The notes beneath the pieces are model-generated. The model had not been told where the DNA came from, did no database searches, and saw only the letters and a program-made list of their open reading frames with translations. From Blasia pusilla (taxonomy: Eukaryota), in the NCBI GenBank assembly GCA_050084515.1, contig CM114271.1, positions 6,014,001-6,078,000 on the forward strand: 64,000 bases of DNA. Direction: 5' to 3'. Position numbers and translations under genes: made by a program. Shown here piece after piece: positions 7,672 through 53,828 of this stretch. The number at the start of each line of letters is the position of its first letter. The stretch's first letter is position 1.

Positions 7672-7983
7672 TATAGAAAAGTGATAACGAAGTATAACTG
7701 GTGGGAAACGACTCTCACACTCACACATTTCCATGGAGAATGAAATTTTGCAATGAGAGAATGAGTGGAGGTTGGTCCCCTTCTCAATTATGTAGGGTAT
7801 GTACAAACAACCCTAACCCTAATCCTAACCATAGTCTTGAGTTAGACTAGTTGTGATTAACTAACCCTAGTTAAGATAATTGTGCTTAAGTGACTAATCA
7901 AGATTAAGCTTCTAACTTTGTATGAGTACCAAATCTAGCAATTTGGATGTCTGATGAGCTTGATTATAACTTAACCTTCAATA
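7672..7983 (-). repeat. Copia 3' LTR
   Basis: Direct repeat of 22155-22453; PPT AGGGGGAG (minus strand) at 7984-7991. Confidence 0.9.
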
Positions 7984-14450: not shown

Positions 14451-14717
14451 GCCGAGCAGAGACGGATGCAAGTGTCATCCATGTCGTCACGTCCACCAGT
14501 TGGAGCATTGCCTACAGGGTCTATACATGCATTGGCTGGGGGTGGGACGAGGAGATATAGGCACCCATGGACTTCCTGGGACGTCATTCGAGTAGAGAGT
14601 GTGAAGGCGGCCAAACTAGCACGTGTTCATTTTTTGGATGTAGAGCATGGTGTAGGAGGTAAGAGTGGAGTTGTTGTTGTGGAGGTGGCTAGGGTTGCTA
14701 CATAGCAACCAAAGCCA

Positions 14718-17660: not shown

Positions 17661-18892
17661 GTTCGTTGTATCAAGAACGTCATTTCTGCCAACTTTCCTG
17701 TTGAGGTCTTTCACACTCGGGTGACTTGTTGAGCAGGTCACCCGCCCCTGGTAACTTTTGTGCGCAGGTTACCATGAGGATAGCTATTTTTAGCTATTTT
17801 GGGAAGAGCGTTTTGGCTCTTCCCAACCTTATATAAGAGAGGAAGATGGCTTTCCCAAGCCATCTTTCTCATGTTGGGCTGGCCATTCTTACTCGTATGT
17901 GTGAGTTAGGACTAAGTGCTAGTGTTTGGATTCCTTGATAGCACAGGGTGGACGAGGCTTGATATGCCGATATAGATTGAGGAGTGGAGTTTTAGGCCGG
18001 GCTTCCATTTTTACTACTCTTTATTTTTTGTTTTGTGATCGTCATGTATATGTATAAGTTGATTTTTGTACATGTGTGGATCTATCCGTGTGTGGGAAAG
18101 ATCTGTGTTGTGTGGTATGGATATGCATAGCGATGTATGTTGTGTAGCGATGTGTATGCATACAAAAAATGCCATTTTGATGTAAGTAGTCATAAAACTC
18201 TGTTGAAAGGTACTCTCCTCCTCCATCACGACGCAATTTGAGAATGTGTTCTCCAATATGCTTCTCTATCATAATTCTAAATGTTTGAAATATTGAGAAT
18301 ACTTCTAACTTGGCTTTCAGAAAGTATATCCATATATACCTAGAGAAGTGATCAATGAATGAAACAAAGTAATGGCAACCACTAAGGCTATGTTGTGATG
18401 TTGCCCATACATCATTGTGAATCAACTCCAATATCTTGGATGCTCTTCTACCTTATTTTGGAAATGGAAATCTAGCTTGTTTTCCAAATTTGCAAGAAGG
18501 ACATACCTCTAACATAATAGGACTCGCTAATTTAGGAAGTCTTATTCCAAGATTAGAGGATAAAAGACTCTATAATCTTTCAAGATTCATATGCCCAATT
18601 CTCTTGTGCCACACATTTAGATTTGTGAGTTGTTGGCCAGTTTGATCATACATTGTTGTTTGAATCTCTTGCATAAAAACATATAATTTGAACCTTCTGC
18701 CAGATTTATTTCCTTTTCTTATCATAGTCTCATCATCCATTATTTCAATGAAACAACAATCTGTATTAAACTTCACTTGATAACCTTGTTCTACTATTTG
18801 TCTTACATAGATCAAATTTCTTGCAATGGTAGGAACATAAAGAACATTTCCAAGAGCACAAAGACCATCTAATGCTATTGGAACTTTACCGG

Positions 18893-31955: not shown

Positions 31956-34900
31956 AATGTCGAATTTTATAACGTTAAAGAATATTGCATATAGAAAAAC
32001 TTGAAGAGAAATACCTATTATTTTATTAATATAACTCTTCGGGATATACAACATTTCTAGTATAAACACCATCTTTGTTTGGTGGACTCTCATTGTCAAT
32101 CATCATATGGATTGACTTGGTAGAACCTACTCTAGATGAGGCAACATATAATTTTCTGTGAGAAAATACAGGATTTGGCAAGTGAATACCAACTCTATCT
32201 AACGTTTGACCTTGAGACTTATTAATTGTCATTGCAAAAACAAGACGAATATGAAATTGAAATCTTTGTAAATCAAAAGGTAATCCTGAATCAGATGCAA
32301 TCAACGGAATGCGTGGAATAAACACTCGAGCTCCAATACTTTTTCCCGTCATAATTACAGCATCTATAACATGTCGACCAAATCCAATAATCACCAAGCG
32401 AGTTCCGTTTGCTTGTCCCTTTGCTCCATTCATATTTCGTAATAGCATAATTGGAGCTCCCATTTTCAACGTTAGGCAATGTGGTGGAAGTCCTGATGGC
32501 AAACAAGTATTCAAGAATTATGTTAGGTATATAAACCTCACCCCGTCATCAATCACTGAATCATCACTTTAAAAATTGTGCACCAGAGAAGAGAAACAAT
32601 CATTAGCATCAAAACAATAATTTCTTATAGTACAAATTAATTATGTCTTCATTTCATATAAATTGAAGATATTCATGAAATATTCAAATTACCTCTCTTG
32701 GAAATTGCGACATAATTTCGGCATTGATCAAATCCACAGTAGTATTCTTTGTTGTAAGAATAGATGTACCCCTCAAGAAGTCAATATCACTCCACTTATC
32801 AATATCACGTTCATAGACAATTTCAATCAAATCATTAAGTCTGTGGCTCTTAATAATCATCGCATCAGGAATTCTTATAAAATCATCTCCAAACTCACAA
32901 TGCAATGGTATCCGATCCTCGCCAACCTTTAGTAACTAGTTTGCAAATCCATCTTGCTCATGTCGTGCTTCTCCTAAATAAAATTGACAAAAAAAAAGGA
33001 ATGAGTACATTTTCATAAAAAATCCATAAGATAGCAAAAGCAACAACAAAAGGTTCAATCTTGTTACCTTGCAAACAATTCACTCTCATGTTGGTAGTGA
33101 GTTTCATTATTCTCCCATGAGTCCAAATAAGAGATCTCTTAAGGGTTGCACGCACGCTGTGGTTGGTCGATCACCATGACGTACTACAAGAAAAAATTGT
33201 CGGAAGTCACCACCAAAAATAAATATATTGCCCCCAAAAGGCAGATCTCGTAGTTCAAGATCCACCAAACCCATGATATCTTGGAAGGTACGATTAACAG
33301 CCTCAAAAGCATAACGATGCGTCATAGGAGCTTCATCCCATACGATCATCTTTGCATTTTGCATACGACGTGCAATATCACTATTTACAGATAAGCTAGA
33401 AAATACACAAGAAATAAAAAAGTAAGAAATATTTATACGTAATATATAAGAATAATAAAAACATAATGGAAACCTGATTTTAGAACAATATTAGAGTAAT
33501 AAAAAAAATCTTAGACATAAACTTATTTGCAAGTAGACGATTCATGTATCTAAATAGGAATCTTAAATCGAGAATGAACAATACGGCCTCCATCGAGTAA
33601 CAAAGCAACAATACCAGAAGATGCAACTGCAGGAGTTATATAACCCTTGCTTCGTACGCTAACAAGAAGAAAATTGTATAGAAAGGTTTTTCTGTTCCAC
33701 CACGACCATCAATGAAGAATAACTTTGCCTAAAAAGATCCACATTAGCCACAATATATAGATATTAAAGAATTACAACTTAGAAATAAATCTTAAAATAG
33801 CTTTACATATATAAAATGCACTTACAGAAGATAGCGCATCATTTAACACATCCTCTATGAAAAGATGGACAACATCCCATATAGCTCGTTGTCCATCATT
33901 CAATGAAATCTCCCCTCGTTGAACAGGATCAGCAAGCATTTCACAATCATAGCACAACTCTTATTCCTCTAAGCGCGAGATCGATATAATCCGAGTAACA
34001 ACGTTAGGTTGAGGCATGTTGGGGAAATCTGCCATACTTTTACCATAATCTTGAAGATGGTAATGGATCTCTAATAATGCAACATTAATAGTATGTGGAT
34101 CCAAAGGAAGATTAGAAATTCCAATTCTTTGCATCAAACTATAAAAATATCTGAAACATCTGAAAGAAAAAACATAAAAATCAATACAAATTTGTAATAA
34201 AAAATAGAAAATTCAAGAATGCATAGAAGGCATGCATATTACCTCGCGCCTTTGATGTAAGAGATCTTCAGTTAGAGGAACTAAGAAGCGTTCCCATACC
34301 ATGCTAGGTATAGAGGGCGTGTTGTACAGAAGAATAATGGCAAAGAGCAAACGCAATGAATAACCAGTACGAATTTGTATTGCCTCTTCAAAGCATGAAA
34401 AAACCTCTCTGTTGTCTTCTAATAATCCCATTTGAATAGCCGTTTCCTTAAAAGTAGAATAAACAACACCATCAATCGTTCTTAAATCTTGATAATATTG
34501 AGCTTTTCTCACATGATGAAGAAGTAATCGTAGCCAATGACGCTCCTATTCACCTATATAAATTAACAATCAATTAAAATAATTAATGTAAACCCAAGAA
34601 AGAAGAGAATAATATTATATTAAGTTTAACATTAATTTTGTGAAAAAAAAATCTAGAGGAAAGTTCACGTGGGTTAGTCATATACAAACGTCTGATAGGA
34701 TGTCCACATCCTTTTCTTCCACATCGAACCCACGTCTTCTTTGTCGTGCGAATCCACATCGTCATACAACATACATCGCTGACATACCATACGCACATAC
34801 ATACATAACATAGACGAGAGTATCCACAAACGCAAGTGTACCACCACTGAAATCCGTGAAAGACCTACTGTCATAAAACACGTTTACAATCACATACAAT

Positions 34901-35499
34901 CGAGCCAAACCCACTCCACGATGGGAGAATCTAGGTCGAAGCTTGCGGGAAAACACCATAGCCAAGAGCTCTACTCACTACCAAGGCTAACTCCCAACGC
35001 AACAGGCTCAACTCAAAGAACTTACTGTTCTTTGAGGGCAAGCCACCTTATATCCTCCAACCTAAGAGCGGGCCCTACTGGGAAAGTCACCCCCAAGTGA
35101 GTAACCCCCAACCCTATGTATGGAACCGCATCTCTACCAAGCCACTACGGTCCTACATAAGGAATGGCCTCTACCAGCACACCATACTCTACGACATAAT
35201 CCGTATGGTCATGACAAGTGTCATGCGAATCCACATCGTCATACAACATACATCGCTGACATACCATACGCACATACATACATAACATAGACGAGAGTAT
35301 CCACAAACGCAAGGGTACCACAACTCGCCCTCCTAACTGGCGGTTAGGTCCCTCTAACTCCCAGGTAGCCCTATACATCTACTACATGCTATACACCTTC
35401 TTGGGTGCCCAAATCAGAAGGCCGGGTGCTAGGTTGCCCCATCGTTAGTCGTACATCTGTAATCCATATCATGCAAAGATCAAGTCATCTACCTCTCCT

Positions 35500-35640
35500 A
35501 AGTACATCGAGGACAAACCCACCTTCCAAAGAGGAACAACATCCAAACGTGAGTCAAACACATAATGTGCCAACCCCTAGAACACCGATCACACACCAAC
35601 ATACGGGCTGCGTTACCAACAGACCCACACAACATGCACC
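35500..35640 (-). pseudogene. PHD finger at the integrase C-terminus, element 2
   Basis: CMLC-x8-LVCDRCSRGWHIMCL-x9-GRWVCPRC fits the C4HC3 PHD with the conserved W before the last CxxC. Confidence 0.9.
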
Positions 35641-38570
35641 TCAAGCTAGCACGTATCATGGCTAAGCTTGGGTCAACAGTACCATCCACATTTGGAAGAT
35701 GACATGGCGCACAATTACGCACATGGTCCTTCCAAACAACTCCATCACGACCCTCCAACATGAGAACTCCATAAGCTAACACCTCACGCACTTTCGTAAA
35801 ATAGTGCGCCTGCCGTCACATCCAACGTTGTCGGGCAATCTGCTGCAAATAGACATAGTCCCCACATGGAACCTACGAATCGATGGTCGATAACCTCCAC
35901 CCGAATGGTTGCATGCCGCAACGTATCCCTGTGTTGAGCAATGGCAAGATTCTCAAAGGCATTTGTTGGCATAACTCTCGAAAGAGCTCCGCCGGCGAGA
36001 ACACACCCTCATCCACATCTCGGGGTCATCAAGGTTCACCACCTCACTAGACTCCCAACAATTGTTGGCAAGTCGGATCTCGGCCGTATAACTTGAGAGA
36101 ATAAGGTGAGAAGGAAGCCAAGGATGCTTGGCGATCGAACCCTATACCCCATGGCTAACCATGGCAACTGAATATCCGGTCTCCAAGATGCCCTTCAGAG
36201 GCCATACTTGCGCAATGCCCTCTTCACCGCCCTGAACCACATGCTCAGCCAAACCATCCGCCTCTGGATGATCTCGAGCGTGGTCCGATGATCAATCAAC
36301 GCCTTGTCACACAAGACGAAACTCACCCGAAACTCAGACCTGGTCGGGTCAAGACGCCAATTTGGTGCACAAAAATGACTAAGCACTCTATCCAGAAACG
36401 CATACGCCGTTCCCTCACTTGCCTTGTCCGGTAATGCCACCAACTCAATCCACTTGGAGAAGTGCTCCACCATCACCAACACATATCGATGATGTCGTAC
36501 AGTCAACGGTAACGGTCCCGCAAAGTCCACACTCCAACGGTAACCTAACCCCATAATAGGCAAGGGGTGTAATTGTGGTGTAGGGGCATTAAATGATGCC
36601 CTCACCCGGTCACAAACCATACAACGTGACACCAACTGCTGCACCTGAGTATGCATGCCACGCCACCAATACTGGCCAAGGAGTAAGCTATACGTACGCT
36701 TTACCCCAAAATGTCCCAACTCCTCATGGGCATGTCGCACAATGCGCTCTCTCTGAGCCAAATGTGGCACTACTCGTACTCTACCATCCTCCCATACGCG
36801 GAGAATATGTGTTCCCTCCAATCGATACCTCTTAGCACGTTGAAGAACACGGTCTCACTCCTTGGCACTCACTATGCCTGGCACCCTACTGGTCCGTAGG
36901 AACTCCAACACCAACGCATCATCATGAATATCACGCTGATCCGTACCACCATCTCCAACCTTAGGATCTCAAGGTGGCCATCTACCCCTCGACTAGAGTA
37001 AGATATCATGTGGTCCTCCATACTAGAGTCCACCCCTAACCAACATAAAAAGGCGGATGCATGCCAACCTGGCACCATCTCCTCATCAACCTCGCCATGC
37101 CATCTAGCCCCAGTTGTATCCTCTTGGCTAGTACATGGGTTCCTACTCAACCCATCAGCATCAAGGTTGGCAACTCCAGGTCTATGTACCACCCGGAAGT
37201 CATACTCTGTAAGATAAGAGCCCATCGTGCAAGCTTCCTGTAAGCTTGTCCGACTCTATCAACCACTTGAGCGGCTGGTGATCGTACCAAGGGTAAAGCG
37301 TGTGCCAAACAAGTAACACCTAAAGTGTGCCACACCCCCACACTCTTGCCAAGCACTCTCCCTCATATGAACTATAGCGCGACTCCATTTGCATTATTCG
37401 AACAACTTGCATAGGCCACCACAAACTCCATGTGCTCATCATCATGTTGTGTCAACACCGCTCCAAGTCCCAACCTACTCCAATCAGTGTGTAATTGAAA
37501 TGGGCGCCCTCTGATAGGTCTCCTCAAGATAGGCGCCGCCACCAACTGGGCCTTAAGCTCCACAAAAGCTCTCTCCTGATCATCTCCCGAGTGCCACTCT
37601 TGATCTGATTTCAGCAATTGGTTCAAAGGCTTTGCCATAGCACTATATCCCTTCACATACCTCCGATAGAAGTTCGCCAATCCCATAAATGCTCGAACTC
37701 TACTCACATCTATCGGACGCGGAATAAGTGCAATAGCCTCCACCTTTGCTTGCTGAACTCCCAAACCACCTGGATAGATCACATGACCCAAGTACTCAAC
37801 ATCCTCATGGAAGAACTTACACTTTCCTGGATGCAAACGTAGACCATGAGCTTTCAACCGCTCAAACACCATCTGCAAATGTATCTGATGCTCCTCCACC
37901 GTGTTACTGAACACCAAGATATCATCAATGTAACACCGAACAAAATCCAACCCTGCTAGGATCCTGTCCATCACTCTTTGAAACTCGGCATGTGCATCTT
38001 TCCACCCAAAGGGTAAGAATTTCCACTGGTACAAACAATCCTTACCATGAGAGTTGACACCCCAAAATGTTGTCTTGGCCTTGTCACTCTCCCGAATCGG
38101 CAATTGATGGTATCCTGCCCGAAGATCCAAAAATCGCAAATCTTTGCTGTCCCACCACATCAAAGATCTCTCGGTGTAGGCATGGCATACCTATCGGCCT
38201 TGGTTTGCCGATTGATAGACGGTAATCTCCACACATCCGCATATCCGTGTAGTTGCCATGCATATCCTTTTTAGCAGCATGACGCGCCGATGCATACTCT
38301 CCATGCGACAACTCCACTAATCCAGCCTCCAAAAGGTCCAACGTCCTACTCGAATCAAGTCCTCTCCATATCACTATATCGATAGGGACGACGGAAGATT
38401 GGCGTATCACTAGCCAAATCAATCCGTATACCGGGTCCAACTAGAGAACCCAACTCCTTCATGCTAAAGGCAAAACAACTCCTATAAGCACGTAGGAACT
38501 GTGTCAAGCGTCGTTTCTCACCTCTCGTAAGCTTGGGCCCAAGTAATGGCTCCCAAGTCTCCTCCTTTGG
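35640..38570 (-). pseudogene. Element 2 RT-RNaseH-integrase
   Basis: LDLRAGYHQ, LPFG, YIDD, HTDWS, H-EELG-H...CMVC zinc domain, DFAGP. Confidence 0.93.
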
Positions 38571-38849
38571 CACACTAGAGGGAGAGGCGATGCCATTGGT
38601 CGCTCATAACCCCCTCACAAGATGGTACACCCTTAGCTACACCATCATCTCGAGCAAATAACTCTCCACCAAAGATGAGCAACCAACTCCACATGCCCAG
38701 CCATTACATCCCATCTACTCCAAGGATGCAAAATACTACTCTCCTCGCCCCCATCCGATGCCTCTACCGTCCCGATAGCCATCGAGCTCATTACAAGGGG
38801 TGGAAGACCCACAGACATAGTCCGAAGTCGACGCTGCTCGGCCATACCA

Positions 38850-39795
38850 AGACTCAAAATCCAAGTCAAACAATTCAGGTCCATGGCCTGACCCAACACA
38901 TGACGTCGTGAAGCCTCAGAAATAGAAGCAACCGCTGTCACACCTGTAGCAAATCCCATCGCACGATCTCTCTCATCAGCGTTAGGCTCCACCAACTGTC
39001 GCACATGAGAATCCCATACAAGCCCTGGACCACCTTCCCTGTAGGCATGTGACGAGGGAAAACTCACAAATGTGGGTAGTGCCATCCTAGGCTGGCCCAC
39101 ACGGTTCACCACTGCCATGGGTGACCGATCAATAACCCTCCCCACTTGGGAAGTCGCCGAGTATCCAAGATACTATCCACTGTAAGGCGAGGATCCCACT
39201 GCACTGCATCATATGCTCGACGTAGAACCTCCCTAGGCAACAAGTTTGTCCACCACAAGCGTGGACGATGTGCACGCGAGCCAACTCGCGCTGCATCCAA
39301 CAACACCGCTGGTCCAATCCAAGAGCGCACCTCATGAACACTCGCCATCATTCGGGTCCGAGTGTCACCCAACAATGGAACATTCTCCAGAATGTAAGCT
39401 AGAGCATGTGCCTGATGAACCTGAAGATGTCGTAACACCCGTAACATCTCCCAAAACAATCGAGACCTAGGGTCATGTAATCCCTCACCACGACCAGCAC
39501 GTGTATGACCCTGACATGGCCATCCAGCAATCACCAAATCCACAGGACCTATTCTCTCAAGGTCCTGCGCCCCCAACAATGCAATGTGTGATGGTAAAGC
39601 ACGCTGGTACCCACGAATAGCGATGGCGCCAACAACTCAGATATCTCCGCATCAATCGACCAATATGTCGGGATGAGACTCTGGGCCGTCTCATCTTGCT
39701 CCACATACGTATCTCTCCGACAGAATACCGGCTGCAACATCATGACCAAACCAAAGTGCTAATCCCACCAAAGAGATCTAACACACAAATGCCCT
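38850..39795 (-). pseudogene. DNMT3-like C5 cytosine methyltransferase domain inside element 2 pol
   Basis: GICVLDLFGGIS (I), YVEQD (II), DLVIAGWPCQGHT (IV, catalytic PC intact), YILENV (VI), SRAHRPRLWWTNL (VIII), ERDRAMGF (IX), RRHVLGQAMDL (X). Confidence 0.93.
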
Positions 39796-40199
39796 CCGGC
39801 GGATATTGCCATACAATGGGTGTAGTATCCAAAGGGGATAACCAATCGGGCTAGAAGTAGGAGTCCGCCGTGGGGCCTCCTCTTCCTCGTGAGGTATAAT
39901 GACCTCACACCAAGCCTCTGCACTAGGCGTCGCCTCTGCCGTAGTGCACCACCCGAACTCCAAAGTGGCACATCCAACGATGAGGATGCCATTGCTGCAA
40001 AAATAGGGACCTCCTCTTCCTCCTCATGCGCAAGGAGAATCCATAGCGTAAAACATTACCCTCCAAAAAGTCTCTGGCCAAGTGACTACTCCACTAAAAC
40101 CAGACCACAGATGCTAACATCTTTGTTGGGAAGACCCTCCTGGTCGAGCCAGGAAATAAATCTCACAGAACTTGGCTCATACGTCCATCCCGGATCGCC

Positions 40200-42650
40200 A
40201 ACCTGGTCTATAAGACGCTGTCTTAGTCCAAGTAATCCTCGAAAACCCATCGGTACAATATTGCTCCTCCAACTAGTACATCATACGACTCGGTGATGTG
40301 ACTACCATGCAGATACTCCCAACCGGGAGCTATCGATCGCATGATCTGGTCTCAACTGCACACAAAAATTCTCCCGTGTCATGAATTGAGACCTATCATT
40401 GGCTCCTCCAAGTGATGTTTGAATCTGGAATGGGCAAGGCTCAAGCTCGACCTCCGAATACCCAAACCAATACATGCCGCCTTTCCCAACATCAAAGATT
40501 GGGCACCGAGTCTAACAAGACTCTATCTGGTTTTACACTGCCTGTAGGACTCACCAATCGAAAGATCCCACTCTGGTTGTCCAACATACATACACCAGGT
40601 GTAAGCCTCTCACGATCAATGGTCGGGCCGGGTGGTAATGCATCCATCTTCGCCATCGCCGCTCGCCAAGTAGCACCGGTACTCAATACTACTCGACATA
40701 GAGGGTCGCTCCACCGCAACACCCTCATCCACCTCAACACGTGTAGCAAGAATACCCCCACGTTCACACAACGTGGTCGCTAATCGAAATCAGGAGCTAA
40801 GTCAACTCCTAAAGCCATCACTCCGTGGCGAAAACAATGGGGATCCCAACACTGAAGTTGCCATCCGCACATCTTGCATTGATCTTTGCATCCGTGTCTA
40901 CTACACGCCATGTAGATGCCTCGGTCCCCAATGTCGGCTCAATAGGTCTGCGAGGAACCATGGATGGAGTCCTAAGCACCTCGCAGACAACAAGAATGAC
41001 TGGGGAAGCCTAGCTCGCCTCCCGGCCTCACCCCTCTGTGGGTCCAACTCCACAAGAGCACCACGTGGCTCGACGCTTTCGAGTGGCTCCTCTCAGAATC
41101 GCGGTGATGCCTCAACCTTTGTCTTTGACTCGCCATATAAGAGAGATCATCCCCTCCATAAGAGGTGAGGAAGCCCCTACTCCCAAACCTGATCTATGTT
41201 GGATACCACCATAGTAGCCAACTCTCGCTCCAATCTGCTCAATCTGGCGACCATAGGCGACTCTGTCGTAGTGGTAGGGGTAGCCACCGTAGGCTCTCCA
41301 ACCACTAGTCCACCTCTACCACCCCTACCACCTCTACCACCTCGGCCTCTCGGAGCTACTCCACCACGGCCACGGCCTGATCTCAACTCTGGATGAAGAT
41401 CAAAGCAACGCTCGAGGATGACCTAGTCTCCCAATGATCACACACCGAGTTGGGGCCGATCGAGGCCCATCCTCCAAAGTCCGTCTCCCATCCTTTTGGG
41501 GACAAAACTTCCTAACATGATCACCTCCACATGTCCAACATGACTATCCTTTCTTGGGGCAGCAAATGAAGGCAATGGTCTCTGCACAAATGTCCCTCTA
41601 GGACTTGATCGAGGTCGCGTGTACCCCACGACTCCCACTACTACTACCACCACCACTACTACGAGACTGTGAGGCGGGCGGTGAACACGTGAAGTAGTAG
41701 TTGTATCCCCTCTTGAATGCGGATGTCACCACTCTCTCCTTCACCATGTTAAGCTCAATCTTCTCGAGATAGAGCAAACACATGGGTCAATGTGGGTGAA
41801 TCATCACTCATAAGAGTAGCATCACGCACCCTACGGGCGCAAATCTCTGCCCAAGATCCCATACCAAAATGGATCCGCCTGATCCTCAATCACACCTGGG
41901 TAATCGAAATCAAGCGTCGATACGCGTGTATGCCTCACTTAAGACTCTCACCGGGTCTTTCGCTCAAAGTCCTCAAGATTCCTCAACTTCTCCGTCTTCA
42001 CTCCTTGATAGTTCTTCTTCAACCTCTTGAAGAACTCGCAGAAGGCTAACGATGGTGGGGCACTAGTACCTCCACTAGTACCCCCACTAGTACCTCCACC
42101 GGTACCCCCACTCCGGCTCAGACTCGTAACACTAACGTCGGCCGGGTTGGTGGCATAGCAGAGCACTACTACCAATACCACCATGGGTGATAGACACATA
42201 GCCGGAGACCAATATTGTCTCCATGCCTCAATCTCAAGCAACATGGTCCTTCCTAAACTCATGGTAATCATCCACGGGTGGTCCTTCCAAGTCTTTGAAA
42301 CAACCCCTTCCAAGCCAAGAAGGGTGTAAACAACGTGGCATTCCGCAACATCTGCATATCACACCACGTATCAAACTCCTGCATGAAGTCCTCCAACTCA
42401 ATGGTACCCTTTGCACCGAGTATCGTCGTGGGCCCTTCATGGCCCCATATCCACCGTCCATGTCCCAAACCAATGGAGCTGCAATACTCGATAACAACGT
42501 AGAAGACTCGGTGTTTGGAACACCCTCGTCCTCCTCTTCATCAACCGTCAGAAGTGGAAAAGGTAGCCGATACCTAAATCCACTCCGTGTGAAACCACCA
42601 CTGTCCGCACCACGGTCCCCAACCAGACCACCCGTCAGCTCCGTGATGAC
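40200..42650 (-). pseudogene. Element 2 gag and aspartic protease
   Basis: IELEDFMQEFDTWCD gag motif shared with element 3, RGG-rich tail, protease RVLLDS. Confidence 0.8.
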
Positions 42651-45131
42651 CAACGCCGATGCCGCACCACCACCAAATTACCAAGTGACGTCGATGTCGC
42701 TATACTATTCTAGCTCTACTAGCTATGGGTGTAGGCAACCTAACTTGTCATCACCACAAGAAGTCTCCCACAATCTATTCGTCATCCCTCCAGCCTCACT
42801 ACCGGTAGCACACAAGAGTAACACTACTCTGGAAATCAGCGTCAACCCTAACAATGGGCGCGCAAGCAAGAAGCACGATGGAGGGGATCCAAACACAGGA
42901 AATCCAACGACAACCCTCCAATCGCAAATGGAAATCAAGGTTACACAATCCACCAAACGTGGTGCCCTCTGAATCCACAAAACCCACCACACAATTCTAA
43001 CGCAATAGCTGCTCCGCCGCGGGTCGATGACGTGCTAGTCGAACGCGCAGCACCTGAAAATATCACCTGCATGGAGAGGCTACACCGTACTATGCCCTAG
43101 AGTTACATCAACCAAAAACCTAAGATGCATAAAGCGCCTAACATATCTCCGAACAGCACCAAATGAGCTACCACAGTCTTCACACTGGCAGTTAAGAACT
43201 CGGCAGTTAAGCGTCCTCCAGGCAGAATAGCCCAAAGATGGGTGACCAGTTATGCAAAACTCAAATCCCGAAGTCTGAAAAAATTGCCTCACGCCCAAGC
43301 AAGCAAGCTTGCTTGCTTGCTCCTTGCTCCTTACTCCGCCTCTCACGCCCACTCGCCCCGAGCTACCACGAGTTGCCTCGAAGCCTCAAAACGCCGAGAA
43401 ATGCTCGAAACATGCCCCTATCGCCCCGTTGGCCATGCTTCGCTATGGAGAGAGGTCCAACCAGGGTGCCCCCAATGGGATAGGCGTCTCCAAAAATGAA
43501 CGAGTCACCAACCAACCAGCCCCTCCGATCCGCTGTCCACCATAGCCAGACCTTGAGCTAGTCCGCAAAATTTCGATCAGAAATTACTTCACAAATACGT
43601 GACCAAAATCAAATCTGTTTAGATCAGAATTCAATTGACCACCATAGCTATCTCCCCACAAAAACTCAGCTACAACCGAGCTCCGTACTCCGAGCTAAAA
43701 ATCAGACAAACTTGCTGTCCATACACCTCCGCAGTACCAAATCCGGCCGCTTCCGCCAAGTTTCATGCACGCAGAAATCCGCAACGCTCCACACACTCGA
43801 GCAAATAAATTCACAGGAGATCACAATACGAGTAGCAACAGGAACCTCTCACCTGATCTGGATGAACTTCAACACAGCTTCCGCACTCCAAGCTCTCCAC
43901 ATCAGAAAACCGTCGAACACGAACCAGAATCTTCAATCCTTGATAACTTCCAACTCCCTTGACGAAATCCGGCGATCTAAAGCGCGTTGGAAAGCTCTCA
44001 GCAAGGCGCTTCTTTCCCATCTGACTGCGCACCAGATTCACACCTCCAACATAGGCCACAAGCCACGAACATCCACGGCTGAGTACACAATCAGCCCTAA
44101 CCAGATCCTACTGATCTACAATCGAAGCTACCATCGATCTACTCCAGTTCTTTGAGTGAAATCCGTGAAAGACCTACTGTCATAAAACACATTTACAATC
44201 ACATACAATCGAGCAAAACCCACTCCACGATGGGAGAATCTAGGTCGAAGCTTGCAGGAAAACACCATAGCCAAGAGCTCTACTCACTACCAAGGCTAAC
44301 TCCCAACGCAATAGGCTCAACTCAAAGAACTGACTGTTCTTTGAGGGCAAGCCACCTTATATCCTCCAACCTAAGAGCGGGCCCTACTGGGAAAGTCACC
44401 CCCAAGTGAGTAACCCCCAACCCTATGTATGGAACCGCATCTCTACCAAGCCACTACGGTCCTACATAAGGAATGGCCTCTACCAACACACCATACTCTA
44501 CGACATAATCCGTATGGTCATGGCATCTTATTCCAAGAGTAATGGGAAGGAAAATCCAAATAAAGGAATTGTCAAACCGTAGGATCAGATATATTTGTAG
44601 CAAAGCATTGAGTGAGAGTCATCTCCTTACTCCGTTCTAGAATATTATCCAAAGAGTTACGATCATGAAAATATACCATCTGACTATCAGGGAGATGTAC
44701 AATCAATCGTACAATACTTGGTTGCTCACCATGTAAAATAAACTTGAAGATTCTCCAACAAGCTTTTGAAGCAGAAACATACTTGAAAAGACAAAAAAGT
44801 AAATATAGTTAGAGTCCAACCTTTCAATATTCTAATCTAATTTCAAAATAACATAAAAAAATAGAAAGTCATGTACCTCGCATCAAGATATAAGGATGTC
44901 TCATCAATAATATCTTTTGTAATTGTGCTTCTTGCTAATGTATACAATATGGCATATGATTCCTTATATACAAACTTATAGAAGTACTTCACAGCCAATA
45001 TGCGATTCATAATCTCCAAATTGATATGACAATCAAATAAGGTACATAACATCGGATTATGTAAAACCACCCAATGATTGTCAAAGTCATGATTCGACTT
45101 ATGAATACACCTACCATTAACACGTCTACAT

Positions 45132-48100
45132 TGTTACCTCTTTTATGATAGATCGGTGAGATCTAGTAGAGTACCTTGGCGGAATAGTAGAGGACAGACT
45201 CAAGAGGTTGAGGATGACCTACAGAGACCCCAGGAAACCTGAGAGAACACGTTCTCCCTTTGATTCGTCTCATTTGGAGCCATAACAATTTATTATTTTA
45301 GGTAAGTACCATGTTGAATATATTATCAATTTTCTATTTTTGGTTAGTGGCCCTTGACCTCCTACATCAAATCAAGAATGTAGGAGGTCAAGGGCCAAAG
45401 AGGTGACTTGGGAGCATAGGTTACCATGGAGAGAGTTTGAGAGAGGGGAGGGGTATACCTCAAAGAGAGAGAGCTTGAGAGCTTATTTTCTCTTTGTTGA
45501 ACCTCTTGGCACAAGGCAGAGAAGTTATGGTCCCTTGCCTTGTGAATGTAACCCAAGCCTCTCATTAGGAGAGTGGGTTTAGTTTGACATTGAGAGGGAC
45601 ATGTGAGAGTGCACACATTTGAGAGTTATAGTATTGAGAGAGATTGGATCGTGATTTACAAAGAGAGAATGAGATGAGTGAGAGAGCTTTATGGAGGAGC
45701 TCGCTGGTTTTGCAGGTTGGGAATCATATTCCCCGTTTAGAGGTTCATGAGAGTGCTCATCGGAGCCGAAGCCACTCATTTTTTATGTTTCCTTTGCCAA
45801 TTTTTTGTGTGAAAGAGTGGCGCGCGGAAGCGCTACCCAATTTTTATAGGGATTGAGTATGGGAGGAAATTTCCCCATGTTGATGCTCTCAAGAGTACCA
45901 TGTAGCTTGTTAATTTGTGTTTTCACAAGTTTTATACTTTTTTTGGGAAAAATCAGTGCGAAAGCGCTGCCAAATTTTGTGTCAACAAAATTTGGCAGAA
46001 AGAGACCTTGAGCTTTACAACAATCCCTGTCAGTTTTTACTAGAATGTCCAATTCAAAATATTTTTTGACGCCGTCGTAGATCGTGAAGCTGTACACGCT
46101 ACACAATAGACAATGCATGGTTTTGAGTTGCAGGCAAAAGTTATGGTCAATCTTGCAATTTTGCCATTGCTATGGGATTTTTAGGGTAAAATTGTTCAAA
46201 CCCTAAACTGACGGCCGCCGCCGCGGCGGCCGTCAACGGTCCACTGTCCACCGTTGGCCACCGCCACCGCCTAGCGCTGCTCAGAGCCACGTTTGGCCAT
46301 TGTCCATCCTTGGTTGCCATTGCCGCCATTACGAAGTGGAGGGTCTTCCACGACGACCGTTGATTCTGACTTACATCGCCACCAAATACTTTGTTTTGGC
46401 CGCTACCGTCATCGCAATTTCGTCATCAATCAGTGATTGCAGGGGACCTCTGGTTATGGTGTTCGAGTTTTTATTTCATTCTGCTATGTTGTGATTGGTA
46501 GCCGCTCGAGGAAGATCGAGTATCGTGTCGTGACTCCCGTAGCCATAACGCGCCGCCATTTTCCGCGACGTGCCGCTCGTGGCCGCATCGCACCGTCTCG
46601 ATCACGGAGCCGCTCCTTCACTAAGGACCAGACCATGTGTATTTTTTATTGAGGAGATTATGCCGTGGAGTGCCGCATCCCATTATCGAATGTCGTGTCA
46701 TTATGTAGCCGTTCCGCACCGCGAGTGCCGTACTATACCGCTGGATCCGCACGGCATATTGAGGAGGTTTAAGCAACGTGAGTACAAAAAGAGTACGACT
46801 TGCTGATTGGAGGAGTTGTCTTCACGACCAAGTTGGGATTGAGATTTGCAGTTTCTGAGGAGCGACATCAACATTATTATCAGGTTACCCATTGTGGTCT
46901 CTTATCGTGCATGTGTGAGGGAATTCCGGGTATTTGCAAGTTATTTGGGATATTGGGAAATTATTTGGGATATTGGATTTTATGCTTATGCTGAAAGTAT
47001 TGATGACGTATGGGTTGAGGGGACATAGACCTGTGTGGAATGTCTAGAGTTGAGGATCAGTTGATTTGCCGCACAACACATATCTCGGTGAGAGAATGTA
47101 GCTTGAGTGCCACATATTAGATTGAGTGATTGCGTGATTATTCACGAGGTTGAGAGTGATCGTGTGAGGGAGGCACAAGGATCATCACGACGTCCTTTCG
47201 GGACTATGAGAGGCAAGGTTGTGGACCGGAGAGTAGCTCTAGAGGATTTATGCAGAGTGGCGCGAGGTTTCGAGGATCTCCATGTGCGGGACCACCTCGA
47301 CCTCCTTCTATGTCATCTTCAGATGAGGAGGAGGGCGTAGAGGAGTTCAATATTGCTATGCCACTCACATTGAATAGTCCTACTGCTTGGGCGTACAAGA
47401 TGGATGACCGGGGTAGAGGACCGTGTAGGTTCTCAAGTGCAGTAGGCGTGATAGAGTTGCACGACTTCATCGCGGAGTTTAGGAGTTGGTGCGACTCACA
47501 GCGGGCTAGGAAGTCTAGAGAGTTGAACTCGTTTACAGCATGGAATGGTATATTCCAGCATTTAGATGGGGCATCCATGGAAGATTACCATGAGTTCTCC
47601 CACAAATATGCCCAAGAGATTGAGGCATGGCGACTCTACTATGATCCACACTATATGTCATGGACGGAGCCGTTCCAAGATGAGGAGGAGGATTCAGGAG
47701 AGCCTACTTCCTCGTCCACCAGTGATGTTTTAAGAGGGGTATCTCGCACTAGAGCAGTTGCACCATTCTGTCGGGTTTGCTCCAGGTTCAACCCCCTGGT
47801 TGAGTTCTTCGCTGAGTTGAGGGCGAGCTACCAAGGGTACGTAGAGAGAAGTTGCGGAGCATCCACGACTTCCAAGGGCGCCCAAGTGAGAGTTTGCGTG
47901 AGGCTTACACTCGCTTGCACTGGTTGATCAATGTCATTCAGGGGATAATAGAGGCTCAGGCTATCCACTCATAGTACGCGATGCTGAACTCGACCCTGCG
48001 GATACGTGTACGGGAGGGGGCACTTCTTATGAACACCTCACCTATGTTGAGAGATGTTTTTAGGACCGTTGAGAACATTGAGCGCATCATGGCGGAGGAA

Positions 48101-51100
48101 AGCGTATCCACCATGGGTTCTGGGCGAGAGCAATCACGATTGCCTACACCACCAGTGCAACCACGTGGACTCCGAGATAGGTTGACTATGGCACCATGAG
48201 CTCAGGGAGGATACCGGGAGGCCATGCCATAGAGATATGCGCCTTCATATACAGCTCAGTAGCAGCAGCCGCCTACGATTACTTGTTGGTCATGTGGTGG
48301 AGCCCATCATCAACATGATTGTACTCATCAAAATCATGGACGTGTGCCTCAGCATGGAGGAGGAGATGGTGTTGCACCATGAGGTTATCAGTGTGACTAT
48401 TGTCAGAGGTTTGATCACACACACGCCTGGTGTTTCAATTTACACCCTTAGTTAGGTCCGGGCCGAGGGCCAGAGAGGGCACCAGAGCAAGTAGCCGGTC
48501 TAGGTGGGCCTAGAGATCGTGCACCACGTGGTCCCTTTAGGGGACGAGGACCAGAAGTTTCCCGACAGGGTGGTGGAGTTCCCCGTGGAGGAGGTAGAGT
48601 CCCACCACCTAGACGCGTCGAGGGAGACGTCGGGCGTACAGCTGGGATGGCTGCTCAGATACAACAACTATAGGAGAAGATGTTAAGGAAACATAGTAAG
48701 GCCTTCTCTTTTACTACATAAGAAATTGGTTGTGTAGACACGAGGGTGGTGGCACCGATGGTAATTTTCACAATTCCACATATGCCTTGGGCTTTGAAAT
48801 CCATACCAGTACCACGAGCTATGATTCCCAAGTTGATTGAGTTATTGAAGGAGAAGATGCAGATGGATATCTTAAAGCCATCTATGGGGCCTTACTCGAG
48901 TCGATAGTTCACTATGCCAAAGAAGTCAGAAGCTCTCCGATTCATTCAAGATATGCAACCGACAAATAAGATAACTATTCAAAATATGGGAGCGGGGCCC
49001 ATGCTATCTATTCAATAGGAGATTTGCACTCGAGATATGATCATAGCTATGGAGGGTAGAGATATTACCACTATGGGCACTCCACTTGGGCTTGTAAGAA
49101 TTTGCACATTACCTAAAGGAGCAACAGATTCTGTTGCTCACATGCAGCGTGCAATGAATAAGATCTTGAGAGAATTCATTCTTGAGAAAACCATTCCTTT
49201 TGTAGATGATATTCCTATAAGGGATGTGCAATAGAAGATAGAATTGAGAGGGTTGTGAAAGATGGGTGTAGAAAGTTTGTGTCTGATCATATTTATGATG
49301 TGGATATTGATCCTAACAAGACTAGAAGAGGTCAATCTTACTCTTTCTAGAGAAAAGTGTAGCTTTGGGGTTCCTCAAATTGTGGTAGTGGCTTATCTTT
49401 GTGGAGAATTTGGCCGAAAACCAAATCCAGCAAAAGTTGATGTCATCGGGAGGATACGAGAATGCGAAAACGTCACCGAAGTGAGAAGGTTTTAAGAGCT
49501 TGTGTGTTTTATCAACTATGAATTCCTCATTTTGGCCACATATCTGATCCTTTGTATGAACTCTTGAGAAAGAAGAAGAAGTTCACTTGGGAGAAGAAGC
49601 AAAGAGCAGCATTGATGTAGTTGAAGGAGGCATTGAAGTCGCCACCGAATCTATGACAAATGAGCTACGAATACGGAAGACCTATTATCATCACAATAGA
49701 CACTAGCCCTATTGCCATTGGTTGGGCAGTTGGGCAGGATGACGTGGAAGGAAGAAGATTTGCGATAAGGTTTGGAGCTCGTACATTCACGGAACGACAA
49801 AGGAGGTACCCTTAGGTAAAGAGGGAGCTTTGGGGAGTTATGACTGTGATGAAAGTTGAAAAAGATTATCTTATGGGAGCGTATGTGTTGCTTGAGGTTG
49901 ATTGTCTACCTCTGTTAGGAATGATTGCAAATTATACAACTCCAAATATAGCCATGTTACGTTGGATAGCCTACATTAGATCCTTGAATCCACAACTGAG
50001 GCATATAGCTGGAAAAGAGAACTCAGTAGCTGACATGCTGTCTAGAGCTAGATTTAGTCAAGAAGAAGATATGGAGGTAGCTGAGATAGATGAGGATGAT
50101 GCATATGTATGGCAAGTGTCATCACGAGAAGAAGGTGGCATAGAGGATGTTTTAGCCTTCAAAGAGAATTTGTATAAGGGCAAGCATACGAAGTCCAATA
50201 GGTATGTCGTGCCCATCCCTAAGGAGATCTTTGATGCTATATGCAAAGATCTTCAAGCCGGATACCATCAACTTCCTATTAGATTGGAGGACATGCAGAA
50301 GACGGCATTTTTGGGCATCGATCCTCACGGGAAGGATTTTTTGTACTAGTGGCGGTTCTTACCATTTGGGTTAAAGAATGCCCCGGTTGAGTTTCAGAGG
50401 GTTATGGATAGGATCTTGGCACGTCTGGATTTTGCTAGGTGTTATATTGATGACATCGTAGTCTTTAGCATCACGGTTGAGGAGCATGAGCGACATCTAG
50501 AGGAGGTTTCAACGATTGCTATTACATGGGCTGAAGCTACATCCAAGCAAGTGCAAGTTCTTCTACGACCAAATTGAGTACTTGGGTCATACGATATACC
50601 CAGGGGGGCTTGGTATGTAGCAGACAAAGGTAGAGGCTTTTTCACGCATTCCACGCCCTAGACATGAAATTCATGGGATTGGCGAACTTCTATCGACGGT
50701 ACGTCAAGGGTTTCTATTTGATTGCGAAACTCCCAACCTTGGTGACCAAGGTGGATCAAGAGTGGCACCGAGGGGATGAGTAGGAGAAAGCATTTAAGCT
50801 GCTCAAGGACATATTGACGTCCGTGCCCATATTGAGGAGATCGATCAAGGAGGTGTCCTTTCCAGTTGCATACCAATTGGAGCATGTTGGGGCTTGGAGT
50901 TGTGCTCACCGAACATGACGATGATGGTAGAGAGTTCGTAGTGGCATACACTAGTCGCTCGAATACCATTGCAGAGGCATAGTATAGCTTGTATGAGGGT
51001 GAATGCTTGGCTGCAGTGTGGACTGTCGCACATTTCAGGTGTTATCTATTTGACAACCCCTTTACCATCATTACTGATCATCAACCACTTAAGTGGTTGA

Positions 51101-53828
51101 TGGAGTCCGACAAGCTTGTAGGGAAGCTTGCGAGGTGGGCTCTTTTGTTGCAGGAGTATGACTTCCAAATGGTGCATAGACCTGGGATGCTCAACCAAGA
51201 TGCATATGGTTTCAGCCGTAATCCATACCCGAGTAAGCTAGATGCGACTAGAGCTTTTGCCATGGTGAGAGTGATCAAGAGTTGGTGCCAGGATGGCATA
51301 CGTCAGCCTATTTGGGCTGGTTGGCTATGGAGAGCGAGATTTTTGAGACTTCAATGGCGAGGTCTGATGGAGAGTCGTTAGATCCAAAGGCCGATGAGGA
51401 AACGACATGTGGCCGAGATATTCATGACGATGGAGTGGTCTTGGAGTACCCGCGTACTGGTAGCGTCATGAGCATAGTGGGTGCTAGAGAGCAGGATCGG
51501 ATCCTATAGCGAGCCAGACGGTTCCAATGGGAGGGGGCATATGTATTGCAAGCGTGGGAGGATGGTAGAGTGTGTGTAGTGCCTCATCCTTTGCTGAGAG
51601 CACGTTTGGTGTGTCGTGCCCACAAGGAGTTGGGTCATTTTGGAGTAAAGCGGACGTACAGCTTGCTTGAGTTTCAGTAATGGTGGTGAGGCATGCAGAC
51701 TGACGTTCAGCAGTTTGTTGCCAGATGCATGGTGTGTGATTGAGTCTGAGCATCATTCAATGCTCTGACTCCACATGTGCATCCACTTCCGATCATGGAT
51801 TTAGGTTATAGATGGATTTTGGATTTTGCAGGACCTTTCCCTTTGATAGAGCGCCATAGTCGTTATGTGTTGATGATAGTCCAGCACTTCTCGAAGTGGA
51901 TGGAGTTGGTTGTATTGCCTGAAAAAGTGAGTGAGGGAGTAGCAAATGCCTTCTTTGATTGAGTGTTGAGTCATTGTGGCGTACCAGCTGAGGTGTTGAC
52001 AAACCAAGATATACAATTTCGCGGGGAATTTCAGACCTTGTGTGATCAGGCATTGATCGACCATCGCACCACTTTGCGAGATCATCTTGAGGAGGATGGA
52101 CTAGCAAAGAGGGTTGTGCAGACGATGAAGAGAGGATTACGTAAGTATGGCTTGCAGAAAGGTCACTTAGGAGATTGGGACCTTTAGTTGCTGTGGTTAG
52201 CGATGGGATACAAATTCAACAGGCATGCATCCTTAGCTTCTTTCTCACCGTACTTGCTCCTTTATGGCCGTGAGCCTGATTTTCCTGTGGCCATTTGTCA
52301 AGATGTTAGTGAGGTGTTGAACCTTGATGATCTTGATGTATGGATGAGAGCATCTTCTAAGAGGGTTGACTTGTTCCAAAGAGTGAGGCCCATGGCATTT
52401 GAGAACTTGGCTATTGTGTACTATTTGGATACATTGAAGTATGCGACTATTCGGGGGATGGTTATCGACCTACTATCCGAAGATTTCATCAGGGAGACTA
52501 TGTCTACTTGTAGCAGATGGCACCCATAATGTTGGATGTGACTGCAAGGCGCACCATCTTGAGAGTACGGTAAGGGTTTTCCATCGGGTGTTCTCTTATT
52601 GGAGGGACGTGATGGTATGGTTTGGAAGGACCATGTGCATAACTATGGCCGTGTCACCTTCCAAACATTGACGATATAGTTGATTCGAGATTAGTAGTAG
52701 TTCTTGCAGGCTTGCGATGTATGTTGTGTGGTTATGCCCGTGGTATAGCCACTATAGTAGTCTTTGATGGATATTCGAGAGGATGGCATATGGCATGCTT
52801 GACACCACCTCTCACTAGGGTTCCTCAGGGACAATGGATGTGTCCCAAATATACATAGAGTAGGTAGTTCTACATTCTGACTTGTGTCTGTGACATGGAT
52901 GACAAGAAGGTGACTAACGATGGGGACACATGAGCACCCGACCTTCTTGCTCTTAGCGTCTGAGAGATGTATGTCATGCATGGTAGGTAGGGATAGATGG
53001 TTATCTAGAGTTAGAGGGACCTAACCACCAACTAGGGGGGGATTGGAGATATTTTGGTACTTCTTGTCTCCTTGTTTGGATGCCATGAGTTAGCGTGGGA
53101 TCGTGCGTGTTAGTGTGTGTGTTCGGTGATAACGATGTATGTTGTGTAACGATATATATACGCACGACAGTTGTCACGTCTTTTAGGATAGATCGTGAGA
53201 TCTAGTAGAGCGCCTTTGCGAGTAGTGGAGGACAGACTTAAGAGGTTGAGGATGACCTACTGAGGCCCCGAAAACCTGAGAGAACAAGTTTCCCCTTTGT
53301 TTCCGCTCATTTGGAACCATATTGAGGAACTTACTATTTTAGGTAAGTACCATTTTGAGTATATGGTCTTTTTTTTTTTTTTTGGTAAGTGGCCCTTGAT
53401 CTCCTACATCAGATCAAGAACGTAGGAGGTCAAGGGCCAAGGAGGTGACTTGGGAGCATAGATTACCATGAAGAGAGTTTGGGAGAGGGGAGGGGTATAC
53501 CTCAAGGAGAGAAAGCTTGAGAGCTCATTCTCTCTTTATTGAACCTCTTGGCACGAGACGGCGGAGCTATGGTCCCTTGCCTTGTGAGTGCAACCCAAGC
53601 CTCTCATTAGGAGAGTGAGTTTGGTTTGACATTGAGAGAGACATGTGAGAATGCACACATTTGAGAACTATGGTGTTGAAAGAGATTGGGTTGTGATTTA
53701 ATTGGAAATATTTTGGTTCTTCTTATGTCCTTGTTTGGATGCTATGAGTTAGCATGGGATTGTACGTGTTGGTGTGTGTGTTCGGTGACAACGATGTATG
53801 TTGTGTAGCGATGTGTATGTGCACAAAA
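45132..53828 (+). mobile_element. Element 3: same lineage, split repeats A1 45132-45660, B1 53042-53169, A2 53172-53700, B2 53701-53828; chimeric interior lacking PR and DNMT
   Basis: TSD acat/atat. Gag ~47310-48680, foreign RT-RH 48680-50180, own RT-RH-IN 50180-52700, decayed PHD 52718-52856, G-run PPT 53034-53041. Confidence 0.92.
48680..50180 (+). pseudogene. RT-RNaseH fragment from a different Ty3/Gypsy lineage, inside element 3
   Basis: PMVIFTIPHMPW, LRFIQDMQP, LPKGATDS, FVDD, DTSPIAIGW, HIAGKENSVADMLSR; clearly unlike the adjacent YIDD RT. Confidence 0.85.

Follow-up and report, generated by a model that had tools for sequence, protein, structure and literature searches.

Within a window of 64,000 nucleotides from the bryophyte Blasia pusilla (assembly GCA_050084515.1, contig CM114271.1, positions 6,014,001 to 6,078,000 of the forward strand; all coordinates below count from the first letter of this window), we identified a decayed Ty3/gypsy retrotransposon, E1, which is probably a dead copy of the Gypsy-DNMT3 lineage, and whose DNMT3-like methyltransferase, to judge from sequence comparisons, is a coding part of that lineage kept by selection. 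E1 is 9.8 kb long, and its open reading frames, Pfam matches and tblastn alignments give the sense order gag, protease, C5 cytosine methyltransferase (DNMT), reverse transcriptase (RT), RNase H, integrase and PHD finger (Table 1).

Architecture of E1 and related elements in the window

Read in the sense direction, E1 begins with TG in repeat A1 and continues through the coding region and a purine-rich tract to repeat B1, two further bases, repeat A2 and repeat B2, which ends in CA. The same DIRS-like A-coding-B-A-B layout is seen in E3, the flanks of which showed no target-site duplication on inspection. E2, which is bordered at its 3' end by another element, does not show it. A B-A-B block is also present in a second element within one locus recovered from metagenomes (L037). 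The window further contains a host uncoupling-protein exon at 28914-29255, the nearest relatives of which are bryophyte proteins of 73-81% identity (Marchantia paleacea and Ceratodon 81%, Physcomitrium 80%, Riccia 77%, Calypogeia 76%).

A first-pass annotation, made from the letters of the window, had placed a C5 methyltransferase at 38850-39795, with its motifs in linear rather than permuted order and the domain between protease and RT. All six motifs that it quoted were found at that place, from 39781 to 38879 on the minus strand, and motifs I to X read in order in E1; the tblastn and Pfam maps of both E1 and E2 set the domain between protease and RT. The location was right; alignment to an intact Marchantia relative gives a slightly wider extent, 39841-38675. 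The PF00145 match that the annotation had proposed to look for is present above threshold in the ORF at 39106-39636 (E 3e-10, 40.5 bits versus a gathering cutoff of 22) and does not reflect chance; the C-terminal ORF at 38645-39172, taken alone, gave no Pfam match at E ≤0.01. The annotation had also pointed to a second copy of the domain at 13501-14450, and this proved to be the DNMT of E2, lying likewise between protease and RT; the two copies share 65.5% DNA identity (E2 13460-14459 against E1 39831-38834), and motif VI of E2 reads ENE instead of ENV. Its description of the domain as lying inside pol holds only in part: the domain is indeed borne by a retrotransposon, but it closes the gag-protease frame and precedes a conserved in-frame stop, which places it outside pol in the strict sense.

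The DNMT domain of E1 consists of three frame segments and contains one in-frame stop (codon at 39742). The domain of E2, with six stops and one frame change, is broken as well; the annotation had implied the decay of both copies but had not spelled it out. E1 is a dead copy that cannot make the enzyme itself.

Table 1. Coordinates of E1, E2 and E3 and of their parts within the window
Feature	Position	Strand	Basis or remark
E1, whole decayed Ty3/gypsy retrotransposon	34742..44525	-	Repeats; tblastn and Pfam domain map; TG...CA ends
Possible 4-bp target-site duplication AAGA, 5' flank of E1	44526..44529	.	Partner 34738..34741; a 4-bp match is weak evidence
Possible target-site duplication AAGA, 3' flank of E1	34738..34741	.	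Read from flanks
E1 repeat A1, 5' terminal, begins TG	44157..44525	-	98.1% identity to 34848-35216
E1 gag region, broken across frames	41412..42461	-	tblastn with residues 1-344 of Marchantia P0170
E1 aspartic protease region	40169..40674	-	tblastn with P0170 residues 583-753; ORF text; VLLDS, against VLLDSGAQ in P0170
E1 DNMT3-like C5 cytosine methyltransferase domain	38675..39841	-	Pfam; motifs; alignment to intact Marchantia relative
E1 motif I, LDLFGGIST, SAM-binding loop	39755..39781	-	Frame differs from that of motif IV in E1
E1 motif IV, IAGWPCQGH, catalytic Pro-Cys	39505..39531	-	Motif reading
E1 motif VI, ILENVP	39376..39393	-	Motif reading
E1 motif VIII, AHRPRLWWTN	39244..39273	-	Motif reading
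E1 motif IX, ERDRAMGFATG	38942..38974	-	Motif reading
E1 motif X, RRHVLGQAMD	38879..38908	-	Motif reading
E1 stop codon TGA at site of relatives' in-frame TAG/TAA (DNMT/RT junction)	38604..38606	-	Site blurred by indel in E1
E1 pre-RT linker and reverse transcriptase	37375..38603	-	Pfam RVT_1 E 2.1e-26; tblastn; frame break near 38200
E1 RNase H region	36875..37255	-	Pfam RT_RNaseH_2 on adjoining ORF; tblastn
E1 integrase, H2C2 zinc domain and rve core	36198..36854	-	Pfam E 8.3e-17 (H2C2), 8e-6 (rve)
E1 C-terminal PHD finger	35501..35815	-	Pfam PHD E 1.3e-6; PDB matches to MLL3 and ATXR5 PHD fingers
E1 repeat B1, purine-rich tract before it	35219..35325	-	97.2% identity to 34742-34848
E1 repeat A2	34848..35216	-	Pair of A1
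E1 repeat B2, 3' end of E1, final CA	34742..34848	-	Pair of B1
E2, diverged relative, order gag-PR-DNMT-RT-RH-IN-PHD	10405..18028	+	Repeats; tblastn; LTRs 86% alike
E2 DNMT domain, six stops and one frame change	13468..14591	+	tblastn; motifs
E2 motif I	13510..13536		
E2 motif X	14385..14414		
E2 in-frame TAG followed by CAA CCA (DNMT/RT junction)	14703..14705	+	Sequence reading; hexamer through 14711
E3, related gag and RT-IN-PHD, A...B-A-B repeats, without protease-DNMT part	45131..53824	+	Repeats; tblastn

Affinity and distribution of the methyltransferase

Among characterised C5 methyltransferases the domain is nearest to DNMT3. When the E1 ORF was compared with the PDB by phmmer, the best matches were DNMT3A and DNMT3B (E 2e-7), in alignments spanning motif IV to the AHRxRxxWxN motif, with M.HaeIII at 4.5e-5 and DRM2 at 0.22. 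A profile built from ten family members matched DNMT3A at 9.7e-18, tobacco DRM (NtDRM) at 3.4e-10 and M.HhaI at 6e-6. With a profile of 70 members the values were 9.2e-33 (117 bits) for DNMT3A, 1.8e-30 for DNMT3C, 8.6e-30 for DNMT3B, 1.5e-17 (67 bits) for NtDRM, about 1e-14 for DRM2, 3e-12 (49 bits) for M.HhaI and about 1e-7 to 2e-6 (about 30 bits) for DNMT2-type tRNA enzymes; DNMT1 was absent from the matches of this profile to the PDB at E ≤0.01. Since the profile matches are strongest to DNMT3A, B and C, the sequences support the term DNMT3-like, and the resemblance that the annotation had read from two motifs is borne out by the search: DNMT3A stands well ahead of NtDRM and M.HhaI. Plant DRM lies 50 bits below DNMT3A, and its motif order is permuted according to passages of PMC5890265. 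The host enzymes DNMT3A, 3B and 3C, which are the best solved-structure matches, share with the element domain both the motif I-X order and a short interval between motifs VIII and IX; in contrast to them, the element domain has no PWWP or ADD and is fused to Gag-protease. PF00145 scores of the relatives range from 29 to 58 bits. An AlphaFold model computed from a 10-row alignment had a mean pLDDT of 51.7, too poor for use.

An exhaustive protein search returned 2636 cluster representatives at E ≤1e-3 and 315 at E ≤1e-10, many of which are polyproteins of 1300-3200 residues. The closest named relatives of the E1 ORF, at 69-81% identity, are many Marchantia polymorpha proteins together with proteins of Calypogeia fissa, Riccia sorocarpa and three Sphagnum species. 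One M. polymorpha representative (P0170; Mp_4g09160), which stands for a cluster of 18 sequences, is a single uninterrupted frame of 1278 residues in which the DSG motif of the protease, a pair of CCHC knuckles and all DNMT motifs are present. The protease-DNMT order is also found in distant members, which comprise proteins at 48-53% identity, those of Closterium species and those of Klebsormidium nitens, in which GAQ93235.1 reads CCHC-protease-DNMT. A third group, whose DNMT is related at 33-42% identity, includes the pol of the green alga Scenedesmus sp. PABB004 (P0140); here the order is RT-RH-DNMT-IN-PHD, so that a PHD finger again closes the protein while the DNMT sits between RNase H and integrase.

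The two arrangements are separated in a FastTree phylogeny of 149 DNMT domains, which was rooted at its midpoint without an outgroup and from which, the E1 ORF excepted, domains of fewer than 250 profile positions had been excluded. One clade of 62 (support 0.84) takes in all 35 proteins in which RT precedes the DNMT and none of the reverse order; the 12 proteins in which the DNMT precedes RT all lie elsewhere in the tree. E1 itself belongs to a bryophyte clade of 38 (support 0.999) and sits apart from the subclades of Marchantia and of Sphagnum. By these comparisons the Gypsy-DNMT3 family is broad across the green lineage and occurs in two architectures, which is new from this analysis.

Gypsy-DNMT3 was described in Klebsormidium, with purifying selection and DIRS-like repeats, by de Mendoza et al. 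(2018; PMC5890265), passages of which place the Klebsormidium copies within DNMT3 by a published tree and give a Ka/Ks below 0.2 for the KnitGypsy-Dnmt3 domain. KnitGypsy-Dnmt3 of K. nitens and E1 are both Ty3/gypsy elements with a non-permuted DNMT3-like domain under purifying selection, and the A-coding-B-A-B arrangement given in the legend to Fig. 4c of that paper matches the layout of E1 and E3. The homology extends beyond the DNMT: BLASTP aligns residues 633-1195 of P0170 with residues 604-1148 of GAQ93235.1, a protein that need not be one of the copies of PMC5890265, in a single colinear alignment from the protease to the end of the DNMT (29% identity, E 2e-54). From this colinear alignment and from the presence of the published repeat layout in E1, we infer that the E1 family represents in land plants a kind already known: it belongs to the lineage of the charophyte Gypsy-DNMT3 and is no separate invention. 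It differs from KnitGypsy-Dnmt3 in its host, a land plant, and its DNMT is about 37% identical to that of the K. nitens protein. The in-frame stop after the DNMT and the PHD finger of the integrase are absent from the passages of PMC5890265 on KnitGypsy-Dnmt3, a comparison made with its text; the predicted PHD finger on the integrase is an addition from the present analysis. Its nearest solved relatives in the PDB are the PHD fingers of MLL3, ATXR5, DPF, CHD4, KDM5 and UHRF1. Chromoviruses carry a chromodomain at the C-terminus of their integrase, where E1 has a PHD finger as reader, and the placement of a chromatin reader is thus shared.

SymbioDIRS-Dnmt3 of Symbiodinium shares with E1 a DNMT3-like domain within a retrotransposon and split direct repeats, but, as a DIRS element, it has a tyrosine recombinase in place of a DDE integrase, and it represents an independent acquisition, as set out in passages of PMC5890265, where its DNMT is also reported to methylate CG in yeast. 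Two later papers (PMC12344493; bioRxiv 10.64898/2026.05.21.726589) name Gypsy-DNMT3 in "streptophytes", or retrotransposons with DNMT3 there, in passages that cite de Mendoza et al. or echo that work. The annotation had known of no report from land plants, and in the full-text literature, passages of papers on methylation in Marchantia and mosses included but with subscription journals and supplements outside our reach, we likewise found no description of bryophyte or other land-plant Gypsy-DNMT3 elements.

Selection, decay and transcription

In metagenome contigs, scanning confirmed 101 stretches of the element, and the best 80 were fetched as loci. Parts of the element are contained in air metagenomes. 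Of the best 80 loci, 37 have a DNMT span of 1080 nt or more without a frameshift and were analysed; the remaining 43, partial or frame-shifted, were set aside. Only 2 of the 37 spans are free of stops. Across the 37 loci there are 145 stops, 92 of which are a single C-to-T or G-to-A step away from the commonest codon of their column; over the whole domain C-to-T changes occur at 0.103 and G-to-A changes at 0.096 per site-copy, and all other changes at 0.011-0.038. This excess is the decay pattern expected of methylated repeats. Strand-biased editing, considered as a source of the G-rich sense strand, was rejected because the two rates are symmetric.

The catalytic residues are nevertheless kept in the family. 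The Cys of motif IV is present in 37 of 37 loci and its Pro in 36; motif VI retains E in 36, N in 37 and V in 37; and the Phe of motif I is present in all 37. Estimates of dN/dS among loci by the method of Nei and Gojobori (NG86) depend on divergence, the median being 0.85 for the 38 pairs with dS of 0.02-0.1, 0.56 for 368 pairs at 0.1-0.25, 0.64 for 178 pairs at 0.25-0.5, 0.26 for 73 pairs at 0.5-1 and 0.19 for 27 pairs at 1-2. Comparing the two intact ORFs of E1 with the loci gave NG86 values mostly of 0.21-0.32, with extremes of 0.13 and 0.52, while RT, taken as a control from the same elements, had a median of 0.12 (range 0.09-0.18, 25 loci). Our reading of these values is that the DNMT was constrained during diversification of the lineage, about half as tightly as RT, and that single insertions then decay neutrally. 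Loss of the PC and ENV residues from the family and a neutral dN/dS were two further outcomes that the annotation had set against its own proposal; both motifs are retained across the 37 loci, and dN/dS between lineages is 0.2-0.3.

These data also bear on the idea that the element picked up the methyltransferase only once, as a fragment of a host gene, or that the domain is a chimera of assembly or annotation, in either case without meaning for the element. The suspicion has some ground in the fact that many relatives are automatic-annotation gene models, but the domain occupies the same position in E1 and E2 (65% DNA identity), in the best 80 of the 101 metagenome stretches and in four bryophyte and two charophyte genera; it is in frame with gag-protease in the 1278-residue ORF; and its dN/dS is well below 1. 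We therefore regard the idea as refuted and leave it next to no probability. The annotation's view that the domain is an inherited part of the lineage is upheld by E1 and E2, by the 101 metagenome stretches and by the proteins of bryophytes, Closterium and Klebsormidium.

Sense transcripts of sister copies of E1 exist in the window's own species. In each of three stranded RNA-seq runs bearing the same species label as the window, with reads counted at an identity of at least 95%, about 2000-2300 reads match E1. The first mate lies nearly always on the plus strand, which in most stranded libraries corresponds to RNA of the minus (sense) strand. Read depth is 25-50 over the DNMT, 40-118 from RT to the PHD finger and near zero over much of gag. 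As 1888 of the 2083 reads of run X22 are only 95-99% like E1, with many positions that differ in all reads, the transcripts come from sister copies and not from the E1 locus.

The stop codon after the methyltransferase and its possible meaning

In intact relatives the first frame encodes Gag (with two CCHC knuckles), the aspartic protease and the DNMT, and ends in a TAG or TAA that is in frame with RT-RNase H-integrase-PHD. Of the 54 loci in which the junction could be aligned, 53 share a stop at one codon, TAG in 36 and TAA in 17, and the six bases after it read CAA CCC or CAA CCA. Only L060 departs from this, with two stops lying three codons upstream. The frame is the same on either side of the stop in at least 50 of the 54 loci, L055 and L058 having a frame shift just upstream, and in the best-preserved loci (L004, L006, L021, L034) gag-protease-DNMT and RT-RNase H-integrase share one frame. 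The stop and the two codons after it are kept across lineages that are only about 50% identical in protein (E2, L034). The gag-PR-DNMT ORFs of Marchantia terminate at this position, and ten relatives, 1228-1451 residues long, have no domains besides protease and DNMT. In a few relatives (P0027, P0246) the frame runs on without a break. A different stop, shared by several loci 12 nt upstream of the DNMT, is absent from Marchantia and other proteins, and we treated it as decay.

Together these features suggest that the conserved TAG/TAA-CAA-CC between DNMT and RT is a site of stop-codon readthrough. The six bases after the stop resemble CAR-YYA, the signal of leaky plant-virus stops, although most copies have CAA CCC, which is not the exact hexamer. 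RNAalifold, applied downstream of the stop to seven sequences (the row of L020 being 7 bases off), gave -11.2 kcal/mol with no real covariation and no conserved structure.

Both the inexact hexamer and the lack of a structure found downstream would fit a different route to RT-integrase, by splicing of a short intron that holds the stop, by frameshift or by re-initiation, and for splicing there is a precedent among plant Ty3/gypsy elements, since Ogre elements remove an intron located between their protease and RT frames. A shift of frame is not needed, however, as the frames are equal in at least 50 of the 54 loci, and conservation of the stop and its two following codons across the E2 and L034 lineages speaks against these routes, as does the list of RNA joints, which contains none spanning the stop site (38600) at a read depth of about 25-30. 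We consider such routes improbable, and readthrough the better account of the junction. That the DNMT closes the gag-protease ORF before a conserved and probably leaky stop is new from this analysis.

On the readthrough account, Gag-protease-DNMT would be plentiful and the RT-integrase fusion scarce. With the putative leaky stop lying downstream of the DNMT, the enzyme would be made in Gag-like amounts and would probably enter the particle, where it may methylate newly made cDNA, or it may act on the DNA into which the element inserts, two targets that the annotation had likewise proposed. Integration may be tethered to histone H3 tails by the PHD finger at the integrase tail.

The domain might instead be kept for a role that leaves cDNA and target DNA unmethylated, such as binding of nucleic acid or methylation of RNA (the element's own transcript or a primer). 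Its placement in the Gag-protease frame, beside the part that packages RNA, would suit such a role; passages of PMC5890265 raise RNA methylation for a LINE-borne DNMT and report that the DNMT of the Klebsormidium element produced no DNA methylation in yeast. The authors themselves did not take this result as decisive, human DNMT3B having failed as well (PMC5890265, same passages). Against such a role, the full set of catalytic residues of a DNA methyltransferase is kept, and the best solved relatives are the DNA enzymes DNMT3A, B and C, the tRNA enzyme DNMT2 reaching only about 1e-7 to 2e-6. We think a role other than DNA methylation unlikely and hold to DNA as the probable substrate of the putative enzyme.

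Tentatively, and as a possibility that we rate below even, we hypothesize that one ancient retrotransposon lineage has carried a writer of methylation (the DNMT3-like domain) and a reader of chromatin (the PHD finger) throughout the evolution of streptophytes, with Klebsormidium and Closterium at one end and liverworts and mosses at the other, that it is still transcribed and still has whole gag-protease-DNMT frames in bryophytes, and that its enzyme, encoded before a leaky stop and made in Gag-like amounts, methylates the cDNA before it integrates or as it does so.

Plants silence transposons mainly by cytosine methylation, and a transposon with a de novo methyltransferase of its own is therefore a paradox. 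Earlier work on it had been confined to a dinoflagellate and one charophyte alga, and the enzyme of the latter could not be shown to work. The presence of the lineage in liverworts and mosses, with a whole frame in Marchantia polymorpha and with sense transcripts, brings it into plants with routine transformation, knock-outs and methylome profiling, and the position of the enzyme before a conserved, probably leaky stop yields a specific, testable proposal for the timing and the level of its production. If the hypothesis is true, new insertions would arrive already methylated, and land-plant genomes would harbour in this element a mobile source of de novo methylation; genetic testing of this would be possible in Marchantia.

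Terminal repeats and strand composition

E1 and E3, two of the related Ty3/gypsy retrotransposons in the window, do not end in plain LTRs. Rather, both are bounded by split direct repeats of the form A ... B-A-B, in which both repeat units, A and B, open with TG and close with CA; in the sense order of E1 (A1, coding part, B1, A2, B2), a purine-rich tract lies upstream of B1 and not of A2. The two elements have these split repeats even though the integrase that they encode is of the DDE type.

The sense strand is G-rich in E1, in the related E2 and E3, and in the relatives at metagenome loci L004, L006 and L034, with a GC skew of +0.17 to +0.25, against -0.07 to -0.14 in their flanks. Since the decay of the elements is symmetric between strands, the G-rich sense strand is a trait of the family and not a product of decay.

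Features of the window and of related elements
Feature	Position	Strand	Basis
E1 repeat blocks	34742-35325, 44157-44525		
E3 repeat blocks	45131-45658, 53042-53824		
Repeat block of the second element at metagenome locus L037	L037:14672-15324		
GC skew stretch, E1	35326-44156		
GC skew stretch, E2	10771-17654		
GC skew stretch, E3	45659-53041		
PHD finger	35501-35815 (E1); family proteins P0044, P0073, P0214-P0236		
Mitochondrial uncoupling protein exon, host	28914-29255	-	
Large host exon, protein with thiamine-phosphate-synthase-like stretch	271-3110	-	by eye only
Helitron helicase-like N-terminal domain and PIF1-like helicase pieces	53955-54299, 32026-32517, 33107-33490, 3900-4472	-	Pfam (N-terminal domain); by eye (PIF1-like pieces)
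Copia-type integrase and RNase H piece	18042-18452, 7971-8462	-	Pfam rve (integrase); by eye (RNase H)

Differences among copies and neighbouring sequence

E3 lacks the protease, the DNMT and the start of the RT, in place of which stands about 1.7 kb of other sequence (48532-50248). Part of it is an RNase H-like piece (ORF 49816-50349) that does not resemble the one in E1; the stretch may have arisen by rearrangement or may be what is left of a nested insertion. In RNA reads from sister copies, 1014 bases of 35960-36975 are skipped and 22 other letters stand there instead (7, 6 and 12 such reads in three RNA runs); therefore, some transcribed relatives differ from E1 by a replacement within the region of integrase and RNase H. 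Host genes sit between the elements of the window, which also holds Helitron and Copia remains.

Closterium relatives and the PHD finger of the integrase

Elements of E1's kind, with the order DNMT-RT-RH-IN, are also present in Closterium spp., which are zygnematophyte algae (P0070, P0053, P0030, P0029 and P0046); we found no mention of these Closterium elements in the papers that we consulted. A C-terminal PHD finger on the integrase is a recurring feature of DNMT-bearing elements of either architecture, both with the DNMT upstream of the RT and with the DNMT between RNase H and integrase. The nearest solved relatives of this finger are the PHD fingers of MLL3, ATXR5, DPF, CHD4, KDM5 and UHRF1. 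Whereas chromoviruses carry a chromodomain at the C-terminus of the integrase, the DNMT-bearing elements have a PHD finger in that place.
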